Assembly (NCBI GenBank): GCA_017445025.1
Contig: JAFSVJ010000028.1
Span: 30,707-94,706 of the forward strand
DNA: 64,000 nt
DNA from: Abditibacteriota bacterium
Lineage (GTDB): Bacteria; Armatimonadota; UBA5829
Direction: 5' to 3'
Below are positions 33,290-56,420 of the stretch, in pieces (the first letter of the stretch is position 1; each line of letters opens with the position of its first letter). The position numbers were made by a program, and so were the translations under genes. Below the pieces are notes generated by a model. That model ran no database searches and was not told where the DNA came from. It was given only the letters and a program-made list of their open reading frames with translations.

Positions 33290-33650
33290 CGGTGGTGTTG
33301 TTGGCTTAGATTGTTAGGCTTCTATCTCGCAAGCGAGTGAATACATAAATTTGCAATTCTATGCAAATTTATTCCTGACCACCCACCACAATCCAAATCC
33401 CTAAAAGTTTCGCACGGCCCCCCCACGGGAAAATCAAAGATTTTCCTCGTAGCCCCCCTAAAGGGGGTTCATTGATAGAAAAGCGAAACTTTTTGGGATT
33501 AGGGCAAGCAGTTGTCGTTTTTACAAAAAAGCGATGCTTTTTTGCCGCAATTCAACCTTGGATGAAAGGAATTTGCGGTTGCAAATTCAGTTCAAGGAGG
33601 GTGAGTGCCTACAATTCACCCCCAAACCTATGGTTTAGGGGAGAGAGAGA
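33290..33650. repeat. GC-rich mosaic interspersed repeat copy, related to 48230..48470 (inverted), 60170..60262, 34560..34680, 38380..38660 and 49268..49393
   Basis: tctatctcgcaagcgagtgaatacataaatttgcaattctatgcaaatttattcctgaccacccacc recurs as its reverse complement at 48393..48460. GC palindromes such as cccccaaacctatggtttagggg are present. Confidence 0.6.
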
Positions 33651-34479
33651 TTTTATCTATTTTCTTACAAATGTCTTCTATAATATAGTCCGGGGTGGAG
33701 GCACCGGCGGTTATGCCCACTGTGTCACAGTTTTCAAACATTTCTCCACTTATTTCTTCATCCGTTTCTATATGATAAGTGTGTGGATTCATTTCCTTGC
33801 AAATCTGAAACAGTCTGTTGGTATTGGCACTGTTCTTTCCACCAACCACCAGCATTACATCCACATTAGGTGCCAGATCGTGAGCTGCCGCTTGTCTTTT
33901 ATGAGTGGCATAACAAATTGTATTTGCCACAGTTATTTCATCAGCTATTTGTGCTATTTTACCCACCACTTCACCAAAATACTTTGGGCTGTTGGTGGTT
34001 TGGCTCACTATACCTAACTTTTTCTTTTTAAAATCATATTTATCAACGTCTTCAATGCTTGATATTACAATACAATCGTTATCCGCAGAAGACATTATAC
34101 CCTTAACTTCACTGTGGCCCGCATCACCAACTATTACTATTTTCAGCCCGGCTTTCTTATATTCAACCACTTTCTCATGGACTGCCTCCACAAAGGGGCA
34201 TGTGGCGTCAATAGCCTCAATACCTAAGTTCTCACACTTTTTGAAAAACTCCTTAGGCACACCATGGCTGGGCATTATTATTTTATCATAAAACTTATCT
34301 ATTTCGCTTGTGACCTCAACACCCTTTTCTTTCAAATCTTCCACAACTTGAGGATTATGAATAAGGGGGCCTAAGGTGGCTATTTTCTTGTCCTTATCTT
34401 TGGCATTAGATAGAACTATATCCATAGCTCGCTTTACACCAAAGCAGAAACCGGAATGTTCACTGATTTTGATTTTCAT
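33628..34479 (-). CDS. ispH: 4-hydroxy-3-methylbut-2-enyl diphosphate reductase
   Basis: GFCFGVKRAMDIV N-terminal motif, three conserved Cys regions, and LytB-like length (283 aa). Confidence 0.9.
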   Translation of the reverse strand: MKIKISEHSGFCFGVKRAMDIVLSNAKDKDKKIATLGPLIHNPQVVEDLKEKGVEVTSEIDKFYDKIIMPSHGVPKEFFKKCENLGIEAIDATCPFVEAVHEKVVEYKKAGLKIVIVGDAGHSEVKGIMSSADNDCIVISSIEDVDKYDFKKKKLGIVSQTTNSPKYFGEVVGKIAQIADEITVANTICYATHKRQAAAHDLAPNVDVMLVVGGKNSANTNRLFQICKEMNPHTYHIETDEEISGEMFENCDTVGITAGASTPDYIIEDICKKIDKISLSPKP

Positions 34480-34559
34480 ATTTTATACCAAATACAATTA
34501 TAGCATTAAAGAAGTTTTTGATTTTGCTTCGCAAAATGTGATTTTCTTTGAAAATCACG

Positions 34560-34680
34560 AATTCCCCCCGTCAGTTTCATTCCCAAAAAGTCTTCGCTAA
34601 CGCTTCAACTTTTCGGGAGCCCTTGAAACAATTACGGACTGCCACCCCCCATTTTTCCAAAGAAAAATAGAGGGGCACAT
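34560..34680. repeat. GC-rich interspersed repeat copy (module caacttttcgggaRcccttg)
   Basis: Shares cttcgct ... caacttttcgggagcccttg with 38520..38550 and, inverted, 49296..49320. Confidence 0.45.
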
Positions 34681-34702
34681 TTAGCAGAACCGAATATCTA
34701 CA

Positions 34703-38379: not shown

Positions 38380-38660
38380 TTTTATCTTGAGTATAAAAAT
38401 TCCAAATTCCACAAAAATCTCTAATTTTTTATTACGAAAATCTCTTCGCTCCTTAACCTACGATTTTTTTATAGACGCATAAAACCCTAAGCCCAAATCC
38501 CAAAAAGTTTTGCAAGCTCAACTTTTCGGGAACCCTTGGGCAGCACCCAATTTCTTCATAAATACACTACGGTGAAATTTTACTTCGTAAAATTCCATTT
38601 ATTTTGAAATTGTGGCTTATGGACGGCTAAAGCCTTTTTATTTGCTTAATAAAAAAATCT
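38380..38660. repeat. interspersed repeat copy (modules ttccaaattccacaaaaatctctaatttttt and aaaagttttgcaagctcaacttttcgggaacccttg)
   Basis: Related to 43720..43790, 44060..44130, 48040..48090 (inverted), 48308..48345 (inverted) and 49296..49340 (inverted). Confidence 0.5.
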
Positions 38661-42671: not shown

Positions 42672-43682
42672 TTATTTACAAGAGCCTCTCACAACCAATT
42701 TAGGCTCCATTATTATCTTTTTTAAAGGATAATCTTTATCTCGTAAAGATTTTATAAGCAAATCAGCTGCCATTTCCCCTATATGCATATAGTTCTTACC
42801 ATAGGTGGTCACTATTGTAGTTAAATTGATTCTTCGCAGTTTTGCCATTTCACTGTCGTCTATGCCTAAAACACTGACTTTTTCCGGGATAGATATTCCT
42901 TTTTCGTCCAGCGCTTCCATTACTCCCACTGCCACGTTATCACTTATACAAAAAACTGCGGAAAAATCAAGATTTTGCCATAAAGCTTGTTGGATAGCAT
43001 TGTATCCATCCTTTATATAAATACCGCCATTAATAAAATATTTCTTTCCAAGCTCAATACCCTTAGTTTTCAAATATTCTTTTGAAGTATCATTAAACAA
43101 CTTAAAAGATTTAAAATGTTCTTCCTTCTTACTGCCATTTATAAACAATATTTTTTCATGACCTAAGGACAGAAGATAATCAAGCCCTGTCTTCACTATA
43201 CCTGTCATATCCTCTATAATATAATGGCTGTTAACATTAGGGGGTTCAGAGTCCACACATACAGTCGGAAGAGATTTTGATATTCTGCTGAGTAAATCAT
43301 TTTCTCGTTCACAAGCACAAACTATAAGTCCGCAAGCCTGAAATTCAATAAGTTGTGTCAAAGCTTCCTTTTCTTTTTCCAAATCTCTGTAGGTAGAAAA
43401 AATCATTACCTTATAACCCACATCGGATAAATACCTTTCCGCGTTGGTCACTATTTCTTGCATGAAAGGAGTATCAAACTCTGATACGACTATTCCTACC
43501 AAGTTACTGCTTCCCTTTTTTAATATCTGGGCGATTTTATTGGGAAAATAACCATGCTTTGAAGCTATTTCCAAAACTTTCTTTCTTGTATTTTCGGATA
43601 TACGAGATTTTTCTTTAAAACACAAACTTACGGTTGTTGCCGAAACACCGGCCAATTTCGCTATTTCATTTACAGTAATCAT
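42672..43682 (-). CDS. LacI-family transcriptional regulator
   Basis: N-terminal HTH MITVNEIAKLAGVSATTVSLCF plus a periplasmic-binding-protein-like sugar-binding domain. Confidence 0.85.
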   Translation of the reverse strand: MITVNEIAKLAGVSATTVSLCFKEKSRISENTRKKVLEIASKHGYFPNKIAQILKKGSSNLVGIVVSEFDTPFMQEIVTNAERYLSDVGYKVMIFSTYRDLEKEKEALTQLIEFQACGLIVCACERENDLLSRISKSLPTVCVDSEPPNVNSHYIIEDMTGIVKTGLDYLLSLGHEKILFINGSKKEEHFKSFKLFNDTSKEYLKTKGIELGKKYFINGGIYIKDGYNAIQQALWQNLDFSAVFCISDNVAVGVMEALDEKGISIPEKVSVLGIDDSEMAKLRRINLTTIVTTYGKNYMHIGEMAADLLIKSLRDKDYPLKKIIMEPKLVVRGSCK

Positions 43683-43923
43683 AAAATTTATTTTTTGTCT
43701 CTAAAAAATGTATTTATTATTAAATTATAAAATTCTAAATTCCCTAAAAATCTCTAATTTTTTGCTTAACGAAATATCTCTTGTCTTACCAACCCTGACG
43801 CTCATTCGTCTTGAAACAAAATAGCTTCGGATTGCGTCCTTGCTCTTTTGCTCCAATACTCATTCGCTACGGGCGGTGACGACAATTCGCTATTTCTTGC
43901 AAAAAATTAATCTTTTTGGTAAT

Positions 43924-44019
43924 TTATAACTTTATAATACGAGATTTTTCTTTAAAACACAAACTTACGGTTGTTGCCGAAACACCTGCCAATTTCGCTA
44001 TTTCATTTACAGTAATCAT
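43924..44019 (-). pseudogene. 31-aa HTH-only fragment copy of the LacI-family regulator N-terminus
   Basis: Manual translation gives MITVNEIAKLAGVSATTVSLCFKEKSRIIKL then a stop. It is identical to the regulator N-terminus up to residue 27, with one synonymous change. Confidence 0.55.
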
Positions 44020-44257
44020 AAAATTTATTTTTTGTCTCTAAAAAATGTATTTATTATTAAATTATAAAATTCTAAATTCCCTAAAAATCTCTAATTTTTT
44101 GCTTTACGAAATAACTCTTGTCTTATCTCCTTGACATTCGCTCGTATAAGAACAAATCTCTTTCGGCTACGCCTCACATCTTTGCCCTTCTACTCACTCA
44201 TTACAGTCGAAGACGACAATTCGCTATTTCTTGCAAAAAATTGATCTTTTTGGTAAT

Positions 44258-44353
44258 TTATAACTTTATAATACGAGATATTTCTTTAAAACACAAACTT
44301 ACGGTTGTTGCCGAAACACCTGCCAATTTCGCTATTTCATTTACGGTTATCAT
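44258..44353 (-). pseudogene. second 31-aa HTH-only fragment copy of the LacI-family regulator N-terminus
   Basis: Manual translation gives MITVNEIAKLAGVSATTVSLCFKEISRIIKL then a stop. Confidence 0.55.
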
Positions 44354-44380
44354 AGTTTTTACTCTTTTAAAAGTTTTTTA

Positions 44381-45847
44381 TTATATTTCTGTCACTTTTA
44401 TATTCATAATTTCTGCCAATTTGATCAGTTGACTCTTGCAATCACCATGACAAACTATTACATGGTGGGTGACTCCCACCTTATGAAGTTTTGCCACAAA
44501 TTCTTTAACAGGTCTCTTAACTTCTACAAGAGCATGGATTTCATTACAAGGCAAAGTGGGATAATCTAAGGATTTACCACTGCTTACAAGCATTTGCCAA
44601 CCTTCACTTGTATTCAGCAAATGTCCCATGGTCACCGGTCCCGGTTTAAATATAAACTCCATATTACAACCGGTTCCCTCAAAACCCCACTCTTCCGGAG
44701 CTGTGGTAAGAGATATATCTTTCTCACTCTTAGCGTTCTTTGTGCCGGCTACCCCGTGACCTACCAAAAATATGGCATTATGAGATAAGTCATATTGCCC
44801 CCACTCGGCTTGAAGAGGCACATTTCCGGTTAATTTATACATCATCTGCATCATACAAAGACCTGCAAGGTCACCTTCACTTGCCACAATATTATCCGGC
44901 TTATCCATAATCATGGAAGCACCGATTCTTGCGGGAGCACCTGTTTCTTTTTCAATAAAATGTTGACCTAAAAAACAAAGACTGTCAAGCCTATACTTAT
45001 CAATAAGATCTTTCATAGCCAAGCCAAGCTTAACACTTTTTACAATATCATCCGATTTAACACCGCGGACATTAAAACGAGCTGCAAATTTTCTTGCTTC
45101 TTCTTCCGCATCACTATCCTTAACCTCTTTCCATAATCTCAAAAGATGTGATAATTCAACATAGATAATGTTAGGACCCAATGTGCCCTTGATTTTGGTT
45201 TTGTCATTTTCAAGGTCATACATTCCTCTAAATACGTGACCCACAACACCTACATTTAAATTTCTCAAATCCTTGACAATTTTAAGAAGTGTCACATATT
45301 CATCTATTTCTTCAAAACATACACCTTCTTCAAGAGAACCCACAATTACATCATAATTCTCTTTCCCCATCTTTTTAAAAGAGCCGGAAAGCTGTGTGGT
45401 TCCTATAAGTGATGAGTTTTCCATCATAACTTCATAGTCGTCTTGCGGGGTAATATCGTTATATGCTTGAACGTCAAACAATAATATGGGAACATCTCTG
45501 TTATAATCTATAGCTTGCATAGAAATATAATCAGGCACATAAGTTCCTTCACATACTATTATAAGGTCTACCTTTTCATCTCTGAAAATTCTTCCCACTT
45601 CATCAGCTTTATCAAGAGTATCTACTATTTTAGGAAATATTACCGTATTATTCTCTTTAAGTTTTAAGGCTATTTTGTTTAAAAGATTTTCCACATTTTC
45701 TTTAAACCGGGGAGAGAACATTCTCCAATATTCAAAATATCCGCATGCCAAAAATCCTATTTTAAATTCACAAGGTTTTGTTTTTTCAGACAATAAATCG
45801 CCAAACACATTACCTATTCCACTTTCAAAAGATAAAATTTCGTCCAT
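44381..45847 (-). CDS. sugar isomerase of the L-arabinose/L-fucose isomerase superfamily (putative)
   Basis: About 490 aa. The N-terminal KIGFLACGYFEYW...VDLIIVCEGTYVPD region resembles AraA/FucI-like isomerases. The family assignment is tentative. Confidence 0.45.
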   Translation of the reverse strand: MDEILSFESGIGNVFGDLLSEKTKPCEFKIGFLACGYFEYWRMFSPRFKENVENLLNKIALKLKENNTVIFPKIVDTLDKADEVGRIFRDEKVDLIIVCEGTYVPDYISMQAIDYNRDVPILLFDVQAYNDITPQDDYEVMMENSSLIGTTQLSGSFKKMGKENYDVIVGSLEEGVCFEEIDEYVTLLKIVKDLRNLNVGVVGHVFRGMYDLENDKTKIKGTLGPNIIYVELSHLLRLWKEVKDSDAEEEARKFAARFNVRGVKSDDIVKSVKLGLAMKDLIDKYRLDSLCFLGQHFIEKETGAPARIGASMIMDKPDNIVASEGDLAGLCMMQMMYKLTGNVPLQAEWGQYDLSHNAIFLVGHGVAGTKNAKSEKDISLTTAPEEWGFEGTGCNMEFIFKPGPVTMGHLLNTSEGWQMLVSSGKSLDYPTLPCNEIHALVEVKRPVKEFVAKLHKVGVTHHVIVCHGDCKSQLIKLAEIMNIKVTEI

Positions 45848-47855: not shown

Positions 47856-47889
47856 ACTATACACTTATATTTTATCATATTTACAAATA
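47856..47889. repeat. 34-bp direct repeat ctatacacttatattttatcatatttacaaatat (second copy 48151..48184) bracketing a ~260-bp repeat-element insertion
   Basis: Two identical copies read directly from the sequence. Confidence 0.7.
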
Positions 47890-47894
47890 TAAAA

Positions 47895-48085
47895 TTACAA
47901 AGGACCGAAAAGATCATTTTTTTGCAAGAAATAACGCATTGACGTCTTCGACTGTAATGAGTGAGTATTGAAGCGATTTTTAAGGCACACGCCATTAAAA
48001 ATTGTTTCAAGACGAAGGAATGTCAAGGAGATAAGTCAAAAGTTATTTCGTTAAGCGAAAAAATAGAGATTTTCGAGGAATTTGG
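47895..48085. repeat. inverted copy of the ~190-bp element found at 43720..43915 and 44060..44255
   Basis: The reverse complement matches ttc(c)aaattcc..aaaaatctcta...cttatctccttgacattc...tactcactcattacagtcgaagacg...tatttcttgcaaaaaa.tgatctttt. The sequence is mosaic between the two direct copies. Confidence 0.7.
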
Positions 48086-48229
48086 GATTTTATATTTAAA
48101 TTAATGCATCTCTAACTAAAAAAAATATTGATATTGAAAAATCATTATTTCTATACACTTATATTTTATCATATTTACAAATATTTTTCAATCCAAATCC
48201 ATGCCACTTTCCACCCGTCAATACTTTTT

Positions 48230-48470
48230 TCGGAAATGGGTTTTAGGGGTGAAAAAAAAGCCTCAGTGGTTAGACTCACCCTCCTTGAACTGAAAATTGC
48301 ATCCGCAATTTTCCTTTCATCCAAGGGTTTCCAAAAAGTTGAGCTTGCGAAACTTTTAGGGATTTGGAAGGAGGGGGGACCGGCGAAGACGGTGGGTGGT
48401 CAGGAATAAATTTGCATAGAATTGCAAATTTATGTATTCACTCGCTTGCGAGATAGAAGTTATATATCTC
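48230..48470. repeat. GC-rich mosaic repeat copy (inverted relative to 33290..33480)
   Basis: ggtgggtggtcaggaataaatttgcatagaattgcaaatttatgtattcactcgcttgcgagataga is the reverse complement of 33300..33366. It also carries caagggtttccaaaaagttgagcttgcgaaactttt (inverted module B). Confidence 0.6.
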
Positions 48471-48695
48471 TTTTTCACTTCCGCCGTAGGAATGACTGTA
48501 TACAACTATGGTTTCAAAATTCTTGGCATGACTTTTATCAAAATAACACACTTCTCTGTCACCCTTATAGGAAAATTCTATTTTTTCGAGATGAAAAGGA
48601 CTTGTCATATCTTTATTTATACCAAGAATTTTAAAGTCTTCACAAAATACCCGAAGAGATAAAATACACAATAATAAAACAAATAATATTTTCAT
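48438..48695 (-). CDS. small secreted hypothetical protein (85 aa)
   Basis: Signal-peptide-like N-terminus. Its 5' region overlaps the repeat element. Weak call. Confidence 0.3.
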   Translation of the reverse strand: MKILFVLLLCILSLRVFCEDFKILGINKDMTSPFHLEKIEFSYKGDREVCYFDKSHAKNFETIVVYSHSYGGSEKEIYNFYLASE

Positions 48696-49864
48696 TTTTT
48701 AAGCCAATTTATTGTATTTTCAAATAAAATTTTATTAATATCACTGTGGCTGACACCATAAAATTTCATCATTTCTTTAAAAGTGACAAGAATATAATCA
48801 AAACCTAAGCCACCATAATTGTGAAGCATTTGCTTTAAACATATATCATTACTTAATAGGATTTGTGAAGCATATCCCTTATCACAGAGTTTCTTAATAC
48901 AAACACATCTCTCTCTGTCACTCGCAAAAGGACCATCAGCATATCCGCCGGCTTCGGGAATAAAGAACTCTTTGGCAATATTATCAAACTGAACATAAAC
49001 ACCCATATCCAACAGTTTTTCCATATATTCTATGTTTAATTCCACATCTGTATGGCAAATAACCACTTTTTCAAAATCAAGATTAAAAGGTTTTAATATA
49101 TTGATAACATCAATGCCTGTTGTTCCCCAAGGGTGAAGGTGAACTTGCATTGGAGCGTGAAGTTCCTTACAAGCAATTGCGGCACCACACAGAGATTTCT
49201 TTTCATTCTCTGATATAACCTTACTTGTGCCTATCTCCCCTATTATTCCCGGAAATATTTTACAATCCTGCCCCCCTAAACCGTAGGTTTGGGGGGTGGC
49301 ATCTCCCCCAAGGGTTCCCGAAAAGTCGTTTAGACTTTTTGGGATTTGGGGGCGAAGAGATGACGGGGGGATGGACATCTGCCCCCCTAAACCCACAGAA
49401 ATGCCATATCTAAATTCATTTAATATCTCTTCCGCTATATCATTTTCCCTCTTCTCGGAAAAATCGGAAGGAAATGTATCACCTGTATAATATCCGGATC
49501 CGCAAATAATATTCACTCCCGTTTTTTCTGCCATTCTCTTTAATTTTAAAGGATCTCTGTTTATACCTATATTAGTATTATCTATTATAGTTCCTCCGCC
49601 GTGAGCTTTGAATATTTTAAGCTCATCTGTCATTATATCCTCATTATCAAGAATAAAATTGTCCTTCATTAAATAAGGATTAAGCTTAATATAACCCACA
49701 TTTTTAAGAGATATTTCATCATAACAAATCTTCGCCATTTCGGGATTTTTAGGCTCGGAAAACTCATTTGTCAAATCAATAAATATATGCTCATGGGGGA
49801 GAATATATCCCAAATCTTCAATTTTCTTTTTTCCCAATACAGTATTTATCATATTTCTGTCCAA
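48692..49864 (-). CDS. phosphotriesterase-family (PTE/Php, TIM-barrel metal hydrolase) protein carrying an in-frame 111-bp repeat-element insertion
   Basis: N-terminal LPHEHIFIDL metal-binding motif typical of the PTE family. At 390 aa it is longer than typical family members. A GC-rich segment encoding ...IPKSLNDFSGTLGGDATPQTYGLGGQ... interrupts the fold. Confidence 0.65.
   Translation of the reverse strand: MDRNMINTVLGKKKIEDLGYILPHEHIFIDLTNEFSEPKNPEMAKICYDEISLKNVGYIKLNPYLMKDNFILDNEDIMTDELKIFKAHGGGTIIDNTNIGINRDPLKLKRMAEKTGVNIICGSGYYTGDTFPSDFSEKRENDIAEEILNEFRYGISVGLGGQMSIPPSSLRPQIPKSLNDFSGTLGGDATPQTYGLGGQDCKIFPGIIGEIGTSKVISENEKKSLCGAAIACKELHAPMQVHLHPWGTTGIDVINILKPFNLDFEKVVICHTDVELNIEYMEKLLDMGVYVQFDNIAKEFFIPEAGGYADGPFASDRERCVCIKKLCDKGYASQILLSNDICLKQMLHNYGGLGFDYILVTFKEMMKFYGVSHSDINKILFENTINWLKK
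49268..49393. mobile_element. MITE-like GC-rich repeat element inserted in-frame in the PTE-family gene, bounded by 15-bp direct repeats ctgcccccctaaacc
   Basis: Direct repeats at 49268..49282 and 49379..49393, exactly 111 bp apart. The internal sequence is the reverse complement of the module at 38498..38545 (cccaaatcccaaaaagt...cttttcgggaacccttg). Confidence 0.55.
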
Positions 49865-49879
49865 AATTATAATAATTTA

Positions 49880-53796: not shown

Positions 53797-55089
53797 TCAT
53801 TCGGCATATAACAGAACACCGTGGCCGGGCATTATATAAACATCTTCTCCTCCAAAAGATTTTACATCTCCTCCTGTGCTTCTGTCTTCAACTTTAAATA
53901 TCTTATTTCCTTTGTTAAACTCTATTCCTACCGCAACAGAATAATCGGGGTTTTTATTTACTATCATGGCATACTGTTTGCCGGCTTTATCCACAAATTC
54001 TTGGGCAACCACATTAGCTTCACCTCGTAAAGGAGACAAGGAAAGATTTTTAACATTTATGGCACTTGACTTATCTTTACAACCCTTTGGAACATAACCC
54101 ATATGAAAAACATTAATATTTTTTAAGCTTTTGTATATAGCACCTATATTATGAATGGCATAATTCATGTGGGCAACATATCTCCATGCGGGAGACTTCA
54201 TATTATATTCATCATAAGGAGCGTTTCTCCAATTTCCGAGATTGGGGGTTTGGTATGTAAAATAAGATATACCTTTGGCACCGTAAGCAAGAGAAGACCA
54301 ACCTTGAACGTGAATAATATAATCGTCCGGGTCCGGCCAACTTAAAGCACCTACGGATTGAATTATATTAATAAAACCTACCCTATTTATGTCGGCACCT
54401 TTTTTAATGGCCTCAAGGTTTGAATAAAAATAATTTTCGTTAAAATTATAGTTGCGAACACTGTTTGTATAGCCTACAGCATCCGGATTGTTTCCGACAG
54501 AAAAAGAATAATTATCATAGGAAATATAGTCCAATTTACAACTCTGTGTAATGGTATCAATATATTTATCATAGCTTTCTACTCCCAATCCTGCAGGAGA
54601 CACTGCTATAGGATAAAGATTTATATAGGGTTTACATTTACAGCTTTCTCTAACGGCATCTGCGTAAGCTGAAAGCCTTGCAACTGTATCTTCTCTGGCA
54701 TTGGGTTCATCTTGCACATAAACCATATACAAATCATCCAAATTATTTTTACCTACTTCCTTAATCACTCTTTTTGTAAAGTTTTGTGCCTTTGTTGCGT
54801 AATCTGCGTCACTTTCACCGGTAGAATCCACAAAAACATGAGCTTTTAAATTATGTTTCTTGGCGAATTTAACTTCAGTGGGAGGAATAAAGTGTGTCAC
54901 ATTAAATCCACAGTCATACATATCTTTAAAATATTCATCTCTTTGAGTGTTATTGGTCCACCAATAATGGCCCCAGGGCATAATAAGAAATTCATCGGGA
55001 GTTAATCTTTGTCGTGTAGTGTCGGTAAAGTCTGCATAAGCAGAAATTGATATTATCAAAACTGCCAATAAAAATATTATTTTTTTCAT
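53797..55089 (-). CDS. secreted hypothetical protein (430 aa), tandem paralog of 55128..56420
   Basis: Signal peptide. Long collinear identity with the neighbouring gene (e.g. DDYIIHVQGWS.LAYGAKG, RYVAHMNYAIHNIGAIYK). Confidence 0.5.
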   Translation of the reverse strand: MKKIIFLLAVLIISISAYADFTDTTRQRLTPDEFLIMPWGHYWWTNNTQRDEYFKDMYDCGFNVTHFIPPTEVKFAKKHNLKAHVFVDSTGESDADYATKAQNFTKRVIKEVGKNNLDDLYMVYVQDEPNAREDTVARLSAYADAVRESCKCKPYINLYPIAVSPAGLGVESYDKYIDTITQSCKLDYISYDNYSFSVGNNPDAVGYTNSVRNYNFNENYFYSNLEAIKKGADINRVGFINIIQSVGALSWPDPDDYIIHVQGWSSLAYGAKGISYFTYQTPNLGNWRNAPYDEYNMKSPAWRYVAHMNYAIHNIGAIYKSLKNINVFHMGYVPKGCKDKSSAINVKNLSLSPLRGEANVVAQEFVDKAGKQYAMIVNKNPDYSVAVGIEFNKGNKIFKVEDRSTGGDVKSFGGEDVYIMPGHGVLLYAE

Positions 55090-55127: not shown

Positions 55128-56420
55128 TTATTCCGCAAACAGCAAAACTCCATGGCCGGGGGCAACCATGGCTCCTTCACCATAGAAAAAAGTCACCTGA
55201 TTGCCGGCTCCTCTGTCATCTATCTTATAAACATCCTTGCCTTTTTTAAATTCTATTGATACTTCAACAGAATAGTTAGGGTTTTTATTTACTATCATAG
55301 CATATTGTTTTCCGTCTTTATCCACAAATTCACCCACAACAGCATTAGCTTCCCCTTTAACGGATTTCAATGACAGATTTTTAATATTAACGGCACTTGA
55401 CAGATCTTTACAACCCTTAGGAACATAACCCACATGGAAAACATTTATGTGTTTTAAATTTTTATAAATTGCACCTATATTATGAATGGCATAATTCATG
55501 TGAGCCACATATCTCCATGTGGGAGATTTCATATTATATTCATCATAAGGGGCGTTTCTGTAATCACCAAAATCAGGAGTTTGATAAGTATAATAGCACA
55601 AACCCTTGGCGCCATAGGCAAGAGTAGACCAACCTTGAACATGGATAATATAATCGTCCGGCTCCGGCCAATTAAAGGCTTCCACAGATTGGATAATATT
55701 TATAAAACCAACTTTATTCCTATCGGCGGCAGCCTTGACAGCTTCCATATTGCCATAAAAAGAGTTCTCGTTAAAGCAATAGTTTTTATTACTGTTGGTC
55801 CAACCTTCCTTTTCCTCATTGTCAACAACAAATGGATAGTTATCATAAGAAATATACTCTAATGAACATTCTTTTATTAATTTATCCAAATATTCATCAT
55901 AACCGCCATAGGGATAGGCAATAATGGGTAAAAGGTTTATGTATGGTTTACATTTACAGTTTTCTCTGACAGCATCTGCATAAACTGATAATTTGGCAAT
56001 ATTTTTTTCATCATCGGTAGGTTCGTCTTGAAGATAGACAAAATATACATTATCCATATTCTCTTTGCCTACTTCATCTATAATTTTTTGTGTCCATCTT
56101 TTAGCTTTGGTTTTATTATCATCTTCACTGTTATCGGTCTGCCTAACATACACCTGAGCTTTCATTTTATATTTTTTGGCAAGAAGAACTTCATTGGGAG
56201 GGCACATATGTGTCACATTAAAACCACAGTCGAACATATCTTTATAATACTTCTCTCTTTCCCCGGTTCCGCTCCACCAATAATCACTAAATGGCATAAT
56301 GATAAACTCATCGGGAGTTAATCTCTCTCGAACTCTGTTTGTCGAATCTGCATAAGCAGAACCTGCTACTATTATTATAAATATAAGAAATATAAAAATT
56401 TTTTTCATAAAAAACTCCAA
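55128..56420 (-). CDS. secreted hypothetical protein (430 aa), tandem paralog
   Basis: See the paralog above. Possibly a glycosidase-like TIM-barrel, unconfirmed. Confidence 0.5.
   Translation of the reverse strand: MEFFMKKIFIFLIFIIIVAGSAYADSTNRVRERLTPDEFIIMPFSDYWWSGTGEREKYYKDMFDCGFNVTHMCPPNEVLLAKKYKMKAQVYVRQTDNSEDDNKTKAKRWTQKIIDEVGKENMDNVYFVYLQDEPTDDEKNIAKLSVYADAVRENCKCKPYINLLPIIAYPYGGYDEYLDKLIKECSLEYISYDNYPFVVDNEEKEGWTNSNKNYCFNENSFYGNMEAVKAAADRNKVGFINIIQSVEAFNWPEPDDYIIHVQGWSTLAYGAKGLCYYTYQTPDFGDYRNAPYDEYNMKSPTWRYVAHMNYAIHNIGAIYKNLKHINVFHVGYVPKGCKDLSSAVNIKNLSLKSVKGEANAVVGEFVDKDGKQYAMIVNKNPNYSVEVSIEFKKGKDVYKIDDRGAGNQVTFFYGEGAMVAPGHGVLLFAE

Follow-up and report, generated by a model that had tools for sequence, protein, structure and literature searches.

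Among the palindromic repeats described from bacterial genes, the Rickettsia palindromic elements (RPEs; Ogata et al. 2000, reviewed in PMC2229807 and PMC10969869) measure 105-146 bp and lie in-frame in conserved genes, and the RPE-bearing guanylate kinase of Rickettsia is both translated and active (PMC2229807). ERIC and the 107-bp Correia element have also been found fused to open reading frames (ORFs) (PMC2229807, PMC10969869). The classical bacterial MITEs (transposable elements of the miniature inverted-repeat kind), i.e. Correia/NEMIS, ERIC, RUP and YPAL, possess terminal inverted repeats and target-site duplications that are often TA, and they are mostly AT-rich (PMC2229807). Here we describe an insertion in a gene for a phosphotriesterase (PTE)-family protein, located in a 64-kb stretch of DNA (the window) from Abditibacteriota, a taxon of phylum rank. 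The inserted segment at positions 49268-49396 is probably a recent, lineage-specific arrival of a non-autonomous, GC-rich multi-hairpin element, which entered the gene in-frame and most likely is tolerated there. The element family is new and so is the phylum, whereas the kind of event, an in-frame palindromic repeat in an enzyme gene, is a known one.

The host gene (48692..49852, minus strand) was recognised from the ORF list together with Pfam: its product, a PTE-family protein with amidohydrolase fold, matches the profile PF02126 with E=2.4e-56, the match being split into two stretches by the insert. No stop interrupts the frame 48692..49864 (-), and the initial annotation, which had read this ORF as an open PTE-family gene, is right in this respect. 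The 390 aa quoted there are counted from a TTG at 49864, whereas translation likely begins with the ATG at 49852. The resulting 386-aa product is an exact match to NCBI MBQ7256630.1 (IJS60_02935), which stems from an Abditibacteriota metagenome-assembled genome (MAG) and is annotated only as 'hypothetical protein'. The IspH protein encoded in the window has a 100% identical counterpart in an Abditibacteriota MAG, too. In amidohydrolases the metal ligands are an HxH motif on strand beta1, a bridging Glu or Lys on beta4, a His each on beta5 and beta6, and an Asp on beta8. In an alignment of 65 sequences of the family the metal-ligand columns H22, E206, H238, H267 and D336 are invariant, all of them being present in the window protein, and the H20 column is nearly invariant. 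Profile match and metal ligands thus both place the host protein in the PTE family.

For comparison with the window we used metagenome and assembly loci (L001, L002, L003, L025, L027, L098, L100, L131, L132 and L133) and homologous proteins (P0001, P0004 and P0120). The nearest ortholog of the host protein, P0001 on contig L001, is 97% identical to it, and over that portion of the gene which lies downstream of the insert L001 and the window share ~98% of their DNA sequence. At the site of the insert 43 codons are missing in L001, in L003 (a 66%-identical ortholog from an Armatimonadetes-labelled MAG) and in P0004 (59% identical). Alignment of the DNA to empty and filled orthologs delimits an insertion of 129 nt or 43 codons (VGLGGQ...TYGLGGQ; 49268..49396, minus strand) between codon Ser152 (TCT) and an Asp codon (GAT), numbered from the ATG: the filled site of the window reads ...GGC ATT TCT, then the inserted GTG GGT TTA GGG GGG CAG ATG ... 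GGT TTA GGG GGG CAG, then GAT TGT AAA..., and the empty site of L001 reads ...GGT ATT GGT / GAC AGC AAA.... The gap is larger than the 111 bp first given for the element, a figure that corresponds to the length of the repeat unit. In the 65-sequence alignment the 43 insert columns are empty in 63 of 64 homologs, the sole exception being P0120 with an unrelated 15-residue insert of its own in the same loop, and the alignments with the PDB relatives 3k2g and 9efa both have a clean gap at the insert. As had been proposed, the segment is a clean in-frame insertion relative to PTE homologs, and it is lineage-specific rather than ancestral. The inserted peptide VGLGGQMSIPPSSLRPQIPKSLNDFSGTLGGDATPQTYGLGGQ is indeed the extra Gly/Pro-rich stretch noticed initially, and its DNA has a GC content of 57%, against 33% in the rest of the gene and 34% in the window. 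An identical filled site is found in L002, which is 99.7% identical to the window and was assembled by another pipeline (ENA ERZ28653721, scaffold_109115); this argues against an artefact of one assembly. Contigs of the same strain also occur in several ENA and Logan assemblies, with window proteins 99.6-100% identical there. An intein or intron was rejected as the nature of the insert, which is too short and has neither the motifs nor an Rfam match, and so was integration at an att site, since the core sequence is missing from the empty site.

Within the window there are just two occurrences of the 15-mer CTGCCCCCCTAAACC, one at 49268-49282 and one at 49379-49393 (plus strand). Their starts are 111 bp apart, and no further match is found there even if two mismatches are allowed. 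Both copies are exact, as first noted, and chance hardly accounts for them: none of 100 dinucleotide-preserving shuffles gave two or more matches with up to two mismatches. The pair had been taken for a 15-bp target-site duplication, with a single copy of CTGCCCCCCTAAACC expected at the empty site of a relative. Neither expectation holds. The empty site of L001 reads ...CATGGTATTGGT / GACAGCAAA... and contains no copy of the 15-mer, nor does that of L003; because the empty site has none, both copies must have arrived with the insert, and both indeed fall within its 129 bp. The copy at 49268..49282 is the 3' terminus of the element unit, and the copy at 49379..49393 is part of an extra 18 nt rather than host sequence. 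Judged from these alignments, the direct repeat is a terminal redundancy of the element and not a target-site duplication. Loss of the segment from L001 by deletion between the repeats was rejected as well, as this would leave one 15-mer and none is present.

The ends of the unit follow from L133, an 802-nt contig of a third strain that agrees with the window at 96.9% identity over the 5' half of the PTE gene. The spacer that separates the DUF4838 and PTE genes in L133 reads TTTAATAA / ATGTCCATCCCCCCGTCATCTCTACGAGATGCCACCCCCCAAACCTACGGTTTAGGGGGGCAG / ATTATTATAATTT, i.e. the site is filled by a 63-nt short form of the element, and the window, L001 and L002 are empty (TTTAATAA / ATTATTATAATTT) and show no duplication. 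In the alignment of L133 with these sequences the empty site, TTTAATAA / ATTATTAT, corresponds to window positions 49853..49879 (-). The short form matches the PTE insert in 25 of 26 nt at the 5' end and in 38 of 38 nt at the 3' end. Since it has an empty counterpart, it fixes the unit ends, 5'-ATGTCC...GGGGGGCAG-3', to within one ambiguous base, and thereby the full 111-nt unit in the PTE gene at 49268..49378 (minus strand), which on the coding strand runs 5'-ATGTCCATCCCCCCGTCATCTCT ... GAGATGCCACCCCCCAAACCTACGGTTTAGGGGGGCAG-3'. The same 5' and 3' termini are found in L131, L132, L025, L027 and L100. Comparison of the two forms further reveals that the 111-nt unit equals the 63-nt carrier with the 2-nt centre of its loop replaced by a 50-nt hairpin, module B, nested in the carrier loop (49307..49356). 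Upstream of the unit lie the extra 18 nt (49379..49396, minus strand), GTG plus GGTTTAGGGGGGCAG, the latter being the second copy of the last 15 nt of the unit. The boundary 49378/49379 is thus a head-to-tail junction of a 3' end with a 5' end, in which the left repeat abuts the canonical 5' end, and the PTE insert as a whole amounts to ~1.16 units, with 3 filler nt and the terminal 15 nt of a unit added to a full one.

The extremes of the unit are not inverted repeats, as can be seen from the 5' end ATGTCCATCCCCCC and the reverse complement of the 3' end CTGCCCCCCTAAACC; only internal segments (CATCTC/GAGATG) pair within the unit. For the insert DNA a fold of -36.3 kcal/mol (z=-5.1) is predicted, and z=-3.4 for the RNA of the coding strand. 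The predicted fold comprises a terminal hairpin C6-TAAACC / GTA / GGTTT-G6 (49270..49297, plus strand) and two further hairpins at 49298-49364 and 49365-49387.

The interior of the insert had been described as the inverted module B repeat of 38.5 kb, and this is confirmed: the arms match the copy at 38493-38539 exactly (19/19 and 16/16). Further copies of module B in the window are located at 48321-48367 and 34582-34618, and GC-rich hairpin clusters occupy intergenic spacers at 33.3-33.6, 34.5-34.7, 38.4-38.6, 39.2-39.4 and 48.2-48.5 kb. The module B core, CCCAAAAAGT-loop-ACTTTTCGGGA with its flanks, was also detected in AT-rich metagenome contigs among the matches listed. The stem contains a conserved mismatch position and a conserved internal loop. 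Beyond this 3'-side internal loop, RCCC(T), 16 of the 27 module B copies examined keep a 5-bp outer stem, the sequence of which varies from copy to copy (CCCAA/TTGGG, ACCCA/TGGGT, TTTCA/TGAAA and others). When the flanks were re-paired at random, a stem arose in 6.3 of 27 copies on average and in 13 at most, so that the number of outer stems of differing sequence points to a hairpin conserved by compensatory change.

The carrier termini, 5'-ATGTCCATCCCCCCGTC... and ...C6-7/loop/TAGGGGG(G/A)CAG-3', recur with different contents. One copy in L131 (32-207) carries three tandem 39-mers as cargo and another (6328-6270, minus strand) is a short copy with no cargo, a copy in L132 (827-766, minus strand) carries a TTTTGC hairpin, and L025, L027 and L100 contain further 3' ends of the carrier type. 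Related hairpins stand in tandem arrays in L098 as well as in the 3 x 39-nt array of L131. A second lineage-specific insertion of ~221 nt (34480..34702, minus strand), with module B at 34582-34618, separates the Metallophos gene from ispH, and its empty counterpart is the overlap (TAATG) of these two genes in the relatives L131 and L132. In none of the filled/empty pairs, i.e. the PTE site, the DUF4838-PTE spacer and Metallophos/ispH, did we find a duplication beyond 1-3 ambiguous bases; on this evidence the element inserts without target-site duplication. Near-identical termini in strains ~3% apart, together with polymorphic sites, mark the family as dispersed and recently active. The three exact pairs define a modular hairpin-repeat family with fixed, non-inverted ends and variable cargo that lacks duplications. 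No Rfam family was found for the element, neither at the gathering threshold in the window and 16 related loci nor at E<=5 for the insert. In species-representative genome contigs the module B pattern returned only one unrelated Eubacteriales contig, and the window's own repeats were unmatched there, so that its genome seems to be absent from this collection; in viral contigs the 5' terminus gave 17 matches, all at chance level in unrelated, coding-like contexts of higher GC content.

Of ~35 family copies inspected, only the PTE copy is clearly intragenic. A hairpin very similar to the terminal hairpin of the insert, CCCCTAAACC-ATA-GGTTTGGGG (33619..33645, minus strand), lies at the 3' end of ispH (33628..34479, minus strand), where it supplies the last codons (KISLSPKP*) and the TAG stop; the product has 283 aa, compared with 277 aa in relatives. 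At the start of L131 (1-210) the carrier copy with three tandem 39-nt units ends in ...TYGLGGQ, read in the frame that the PTE insert uses, exactly where the FrhB_FdhB_N domain of the downstream gene begins. As the contig ends there, this copy, in frame with the start of the FrhB-like gene, may be coding or a 5' leader. Contigs of the lineage often break at the GC-rich repeats, and L002 ends inside one. The repeat-rich spacers also contain a pair of 69-nt inverted repeats (33319-33387 and 48391-48459), 100% complementary and 15 kb apart, and it is inside this repeat that L002 ends. The inner hairpin, CCCAAAAAGTC-N4-5-GACTTTTCGGGA(G/A)CCC, is common to a separate, widespread repeat in metagenome loci of 42-63% GC (L004, L008, L010, L014, L017, L026, L036, L047, L063, L070, L072, L105, L124 and many others among the matches listed, where this repeat predominates). 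This repeat has a conserved left flank, ...CTCCTC(T)TT, often occurs twice per contig, and comes from human-gut and other metagenomes, with one contig labelled Eubacteriales; the outer stem seen in the Abditibacteriota copies is missing from it, and Rfam contains no match.

How does this family compare with the described systems? Like RPEs the element is palindromic, ~100-150 bp long and built of long stem-loops, lies both between genes and in-frame in a conserved enzyme gene where it is read through, and is presumed to have a neutral or slightly harmful effect on the enzyme. RPEs, however, have terminal inverted repeats and recurrent conserved peptides, whereas the ends here are not inverted and there is one clear intragenic copy. 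The insert peptide (with the query shifted by one residue) had no match at E<=0.001 among 1.84 billion representative proteins; given this result and a single clear intragenic copy in ~35, the RPE hallmark of recurrent insertion with a conserved peptide is lacking here. With a different phylum and composition, membership in the RPE family is very unlikely. With classical MITEs the family shares size, copy number, stable stem-loop transcripts and the in-frame fusion of some copies to ORFs, but it is GC-rich in an AT-rich genome and without inverted termini or duplications.

In arrangement the family is closest to repetitive extragenic palindromes (REP) and bacterial interspersed mosaic elements (BIME), with which it shares short imperfect palindromes, a conserved mismatch and internal loop, dispersed and nested mosaics in both orientations and the lack of target-site duplications. 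The five clusters in the window and the 16 of 27 covarying stems provide the dispersed, clustered palindromes with compensatory structure that characterise this class. Unlike REP, which are extragenic by definition, the PTE copy is inside a gene; no RAYT gene was seen in the window or in the related loci read, and a carrier-plus-cargo design with fixed 5' and 3' termini is foreign to the standard REP description. In end structure, the family is closest to IS200/IS605 derivatives such as PATEs: it has the non-inverted termini, absence of target duplication, subterminal hairpins and strand asymmetry of these elements, but no TnpA or TnpB was found in the loci read. Insertion in that family takes place 3' of a fixed tetra- or pentanucleotide; here five 5' flanks (TAATAA, ATCTA, TTATA, GCGAA and GGCAG) are A-rich and show no clear consensus, five sites in a genome of 34% GC being the basis of this comparison. 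Hairpins, missing duplications and non-inverted ends together fit elements handled by Y1/HUH enzymes rather than cut-and-paste MITEs. We therefore picture the family as a carrier with fixed, non-inverted termini (5'-ATGTCCATC6GTCA..., ...C6-loop-TAG5-6(A)CAG-3') whose apical loop holds variable cargo, and which might be moved in trans through recognition of hairpins or single strands, as in the REP/RAYT or the IS200/IS605 'peel-and-paste' systems.

The 1.16-unit insert with its head-to-tail junction is one odd feature and a single observation. In IS200/IS605 elements the excised circle is marked by a right end that abuts a left end, and a junction of this kind is embedded in the PTE insert; to our knowledge, the IS200/IS605 pathway has not been described to yield integrated copies of more than one unit. 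The 18 extra nt would imply that more than one unit of DNA was copied, a 3'-terminal piece being placed 5' of a full unit. Such a piece might come from a donor with tandem units in which a cryptic left site was cut, from rolling-circle copying with its start shortly before a unit end, or from reverse transcription that switched from one template's 5' end to the 3' end of another. That the ...GGTTTAGGGGGGCAG / ATGTCC... junction is the footprint of propagation via an intermediate longer than one unit, with a carrier that captures hairpin modules in its loop, strikes us as a long shot. If true, such an intermediate combined with a cargo-capturing carrier would give bacterial hairpin repeats a way of spreading that has not been described for them.

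Turning to the protein, the frame is kept because 129 is a multiple of three and the frame used contains no stop codon. Three of the six frames of the insert are stop-free, as are 21% of insert shuffles in a given frame; readability hence needs no special selection. AlphaFold2, run with the 65-sequence alignment, yields a confident (beta/alpha)8 barrel (mean predicted local distance difference test score, pLDDT, 89.6; predicted template modelling score, pTM, 0.87) in which residues 155-193 have pLDDT <50 and no secondary structure. The insert is placed between helix 136-149 (alpha3) and strand 203-208 (beta4), the strand that bears the metal-bridging Glu206. It thus appears as a disordered loop outside the barrel core, in line with the surface loop suggested initially. 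In (beta/alpha)8 enzymes the catalytic residues stand at the C-terminal ends of the strands and the alpha-to-beta loops on the opposite face; by this general topology the insert loop would be on the barrel face opposite the metal site. We found no terminator-like site in the insert. We lean towards tolerated read-through of the insert-bearing gene, for which the active RPE-bearing guanylate kinase of Rickettsia is a precedent, and the insertion most likely would be neutral or mildly harmful rather than adaptive.

Several observations weigh against a transposed and tolerated element. No transposase was found in the ~100 kb of the lineage that was read (Pfam on small window ORFs; gene tables), for which reason the mobilising mechanism is inferred only. 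Among the copies examined there was no second CAG/ATGTCC junction and no tandem dimer of the carrier. In L002 a 7-nt deletion (ATTCCCG), equivalent to window position ~48960, frameshifts the insert-bearing PTE gene; it may be a genuine pseudogenising variant or else an error of assembly, and in view of this frameshift the insert-bearing allele may be dispensable or already impaired. The ratio of non-synonymous to synonymous substitution rates (dN/dS) in comparison with L001, 0.14 for the gene and 0.078 if +/-8 codons around the site are left out, speaks for tolerance, but it covers all of the divergence and so cannot reveal constraint that dates from after the insertion. Finally, window and L001 diverge in a mosaic pattern (0-24% per 100 nt), and recombination with another strain, instead of transposition in situ, could have brought in the insertion.

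A rival view is that the enzyme was silently inactivated, i.e. killed without a stop codon and now a young pseudogene that is open by chance. The downstream frameshift in the 99.7%-identical L002 would agree with this, as would a disordered insert of 43 residues that lies 11 residues before the metal-bridging Glu206, and with 21% of shuffles stop-free the open frame is a weak sign of selection. All metal-ligand columns are intact, however, dN/dS is low away from the site, the model and general topology put the loop on the barrel face opposite the active site, and P0120 accommodates 15 aa in the same loop; we regard inactivation as a possible but rather doubtful outcome.

Alternatively, the 129 nt might be a templated patch, copied from a repeat cluster or another strain by recombination, gene conversion or template switching. 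The direct repeat would then mirror a tandem arrangement in the donor, such as the hairpin arrays of L098 and L131, and an insert longer than one unit would come naturally. The mosaic divergence fits as well: of the 26 differences that set the PTE gene of the window apart from that of L001, 20 are clustered around the insert, in codons 119-179, synonymous ones included. Yet the sequence searched yielded no donor locus with these 129 nt, and the short form in L133 starts and stops exactly at the unit ends, as a defined mobile unit would; a patch of this kind seems unlikely to us. Compensatory mutation next to the insert was rejected as a cause of the clustered differences, given that synonymous sites are also elevated and the divergence is mosaic along the whole contig. 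Between 49400 and 53900 stretches with 0 differences per 100 nt lie beside stretches with 15-24, a pattern that indicates frequent recombination in the population.

The initial annotation had proposed a classical MITE, an element of 96-111 bp that cut into a host copy of CTGCCCCCCTAAACC and thereby produced a 15-bp target-site duplication. The exact 15-bp direct repeats on both sides, 111 bp apart, invite this view, and palindromic elements of the YPAL type do make variable duplications of 3-26 bp (PMC2229807). Against it, the empty sites of L001 and L003 lack the 15-mer and the gap measures 129 nt, not 111; the right-hand 15-mer (coding strand) ends the 63-nt copy of L133, and TAGGGGG(G/A)CAG ends the copies of L131, L132, L025, L027 and L100. 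With non-inverted unit extremes, and with no target-site duplication in any of the three filled/empty comparisons, a MITE-like class is no longer tenable for this element, and we give the scenario very little credence. A repeat-induced misjoin that put the element into the gene is scarcely believable either, for although contigs of the lineage break at repeats, L002 ends inside one and L133 switches to unrelated sequence at the PTE insertion codon, collinear PTE sequence flanks both junctions, the NCBI MAG contig and an ENA scaffold of another pipeline have an identical insert, and the frame is kept exactly.

The switch in L133 is an observation in its own right. This contig (ENA ERZ28654011, scaffold_437206; region 556-802) follows the PTE gene exactly to the insertion codon of the window (...AAACATGGTATT), and beyond this codon it continues with unrelated sequence of ~50% GC containing an HNH-endonuclease-like ORF (...RYCPEHQQKV...CELCFERG). 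Two sequences may have been joined chimerically at a polymorphic site here, or else the same spot took up a different insertion; the foreign part gave no BLAST match to phage records.

The retained reading, a mobile hairpin element inserted in-frame and probably tolerated, extends selfish DNA inside coding genes, best known from Rickettsia, to a barely studied phylum, Abditibacteriota being known here only from ruminant-gut-type metagenome assemblies. It is also of practical use, as the deposited protein is listed merely as 'hypothetical' and the GC-rich repeats break assemblies of this lineage.

Two further features of the window are of a different nature. At 53797..55089 and 55128..56420 (both minus strand) stand tandem paralogous genes of 430 aa each, for the L001 orthologs of which no Pfam family is recorded; the DNA of the two is 73-84% identical over long stretches. 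A repeat class other than the GC-rich hairpins is represented by an AT-rich unit of ~335 nt: three tandem units (98% and 64% identical over 189 nt) occupy 43600-44459, upstream of the gene at 42672..43682, and inverted partial copies, 79-85% complementary, are found at 47877-48101, upstream of an aldo/keto reductase gene.

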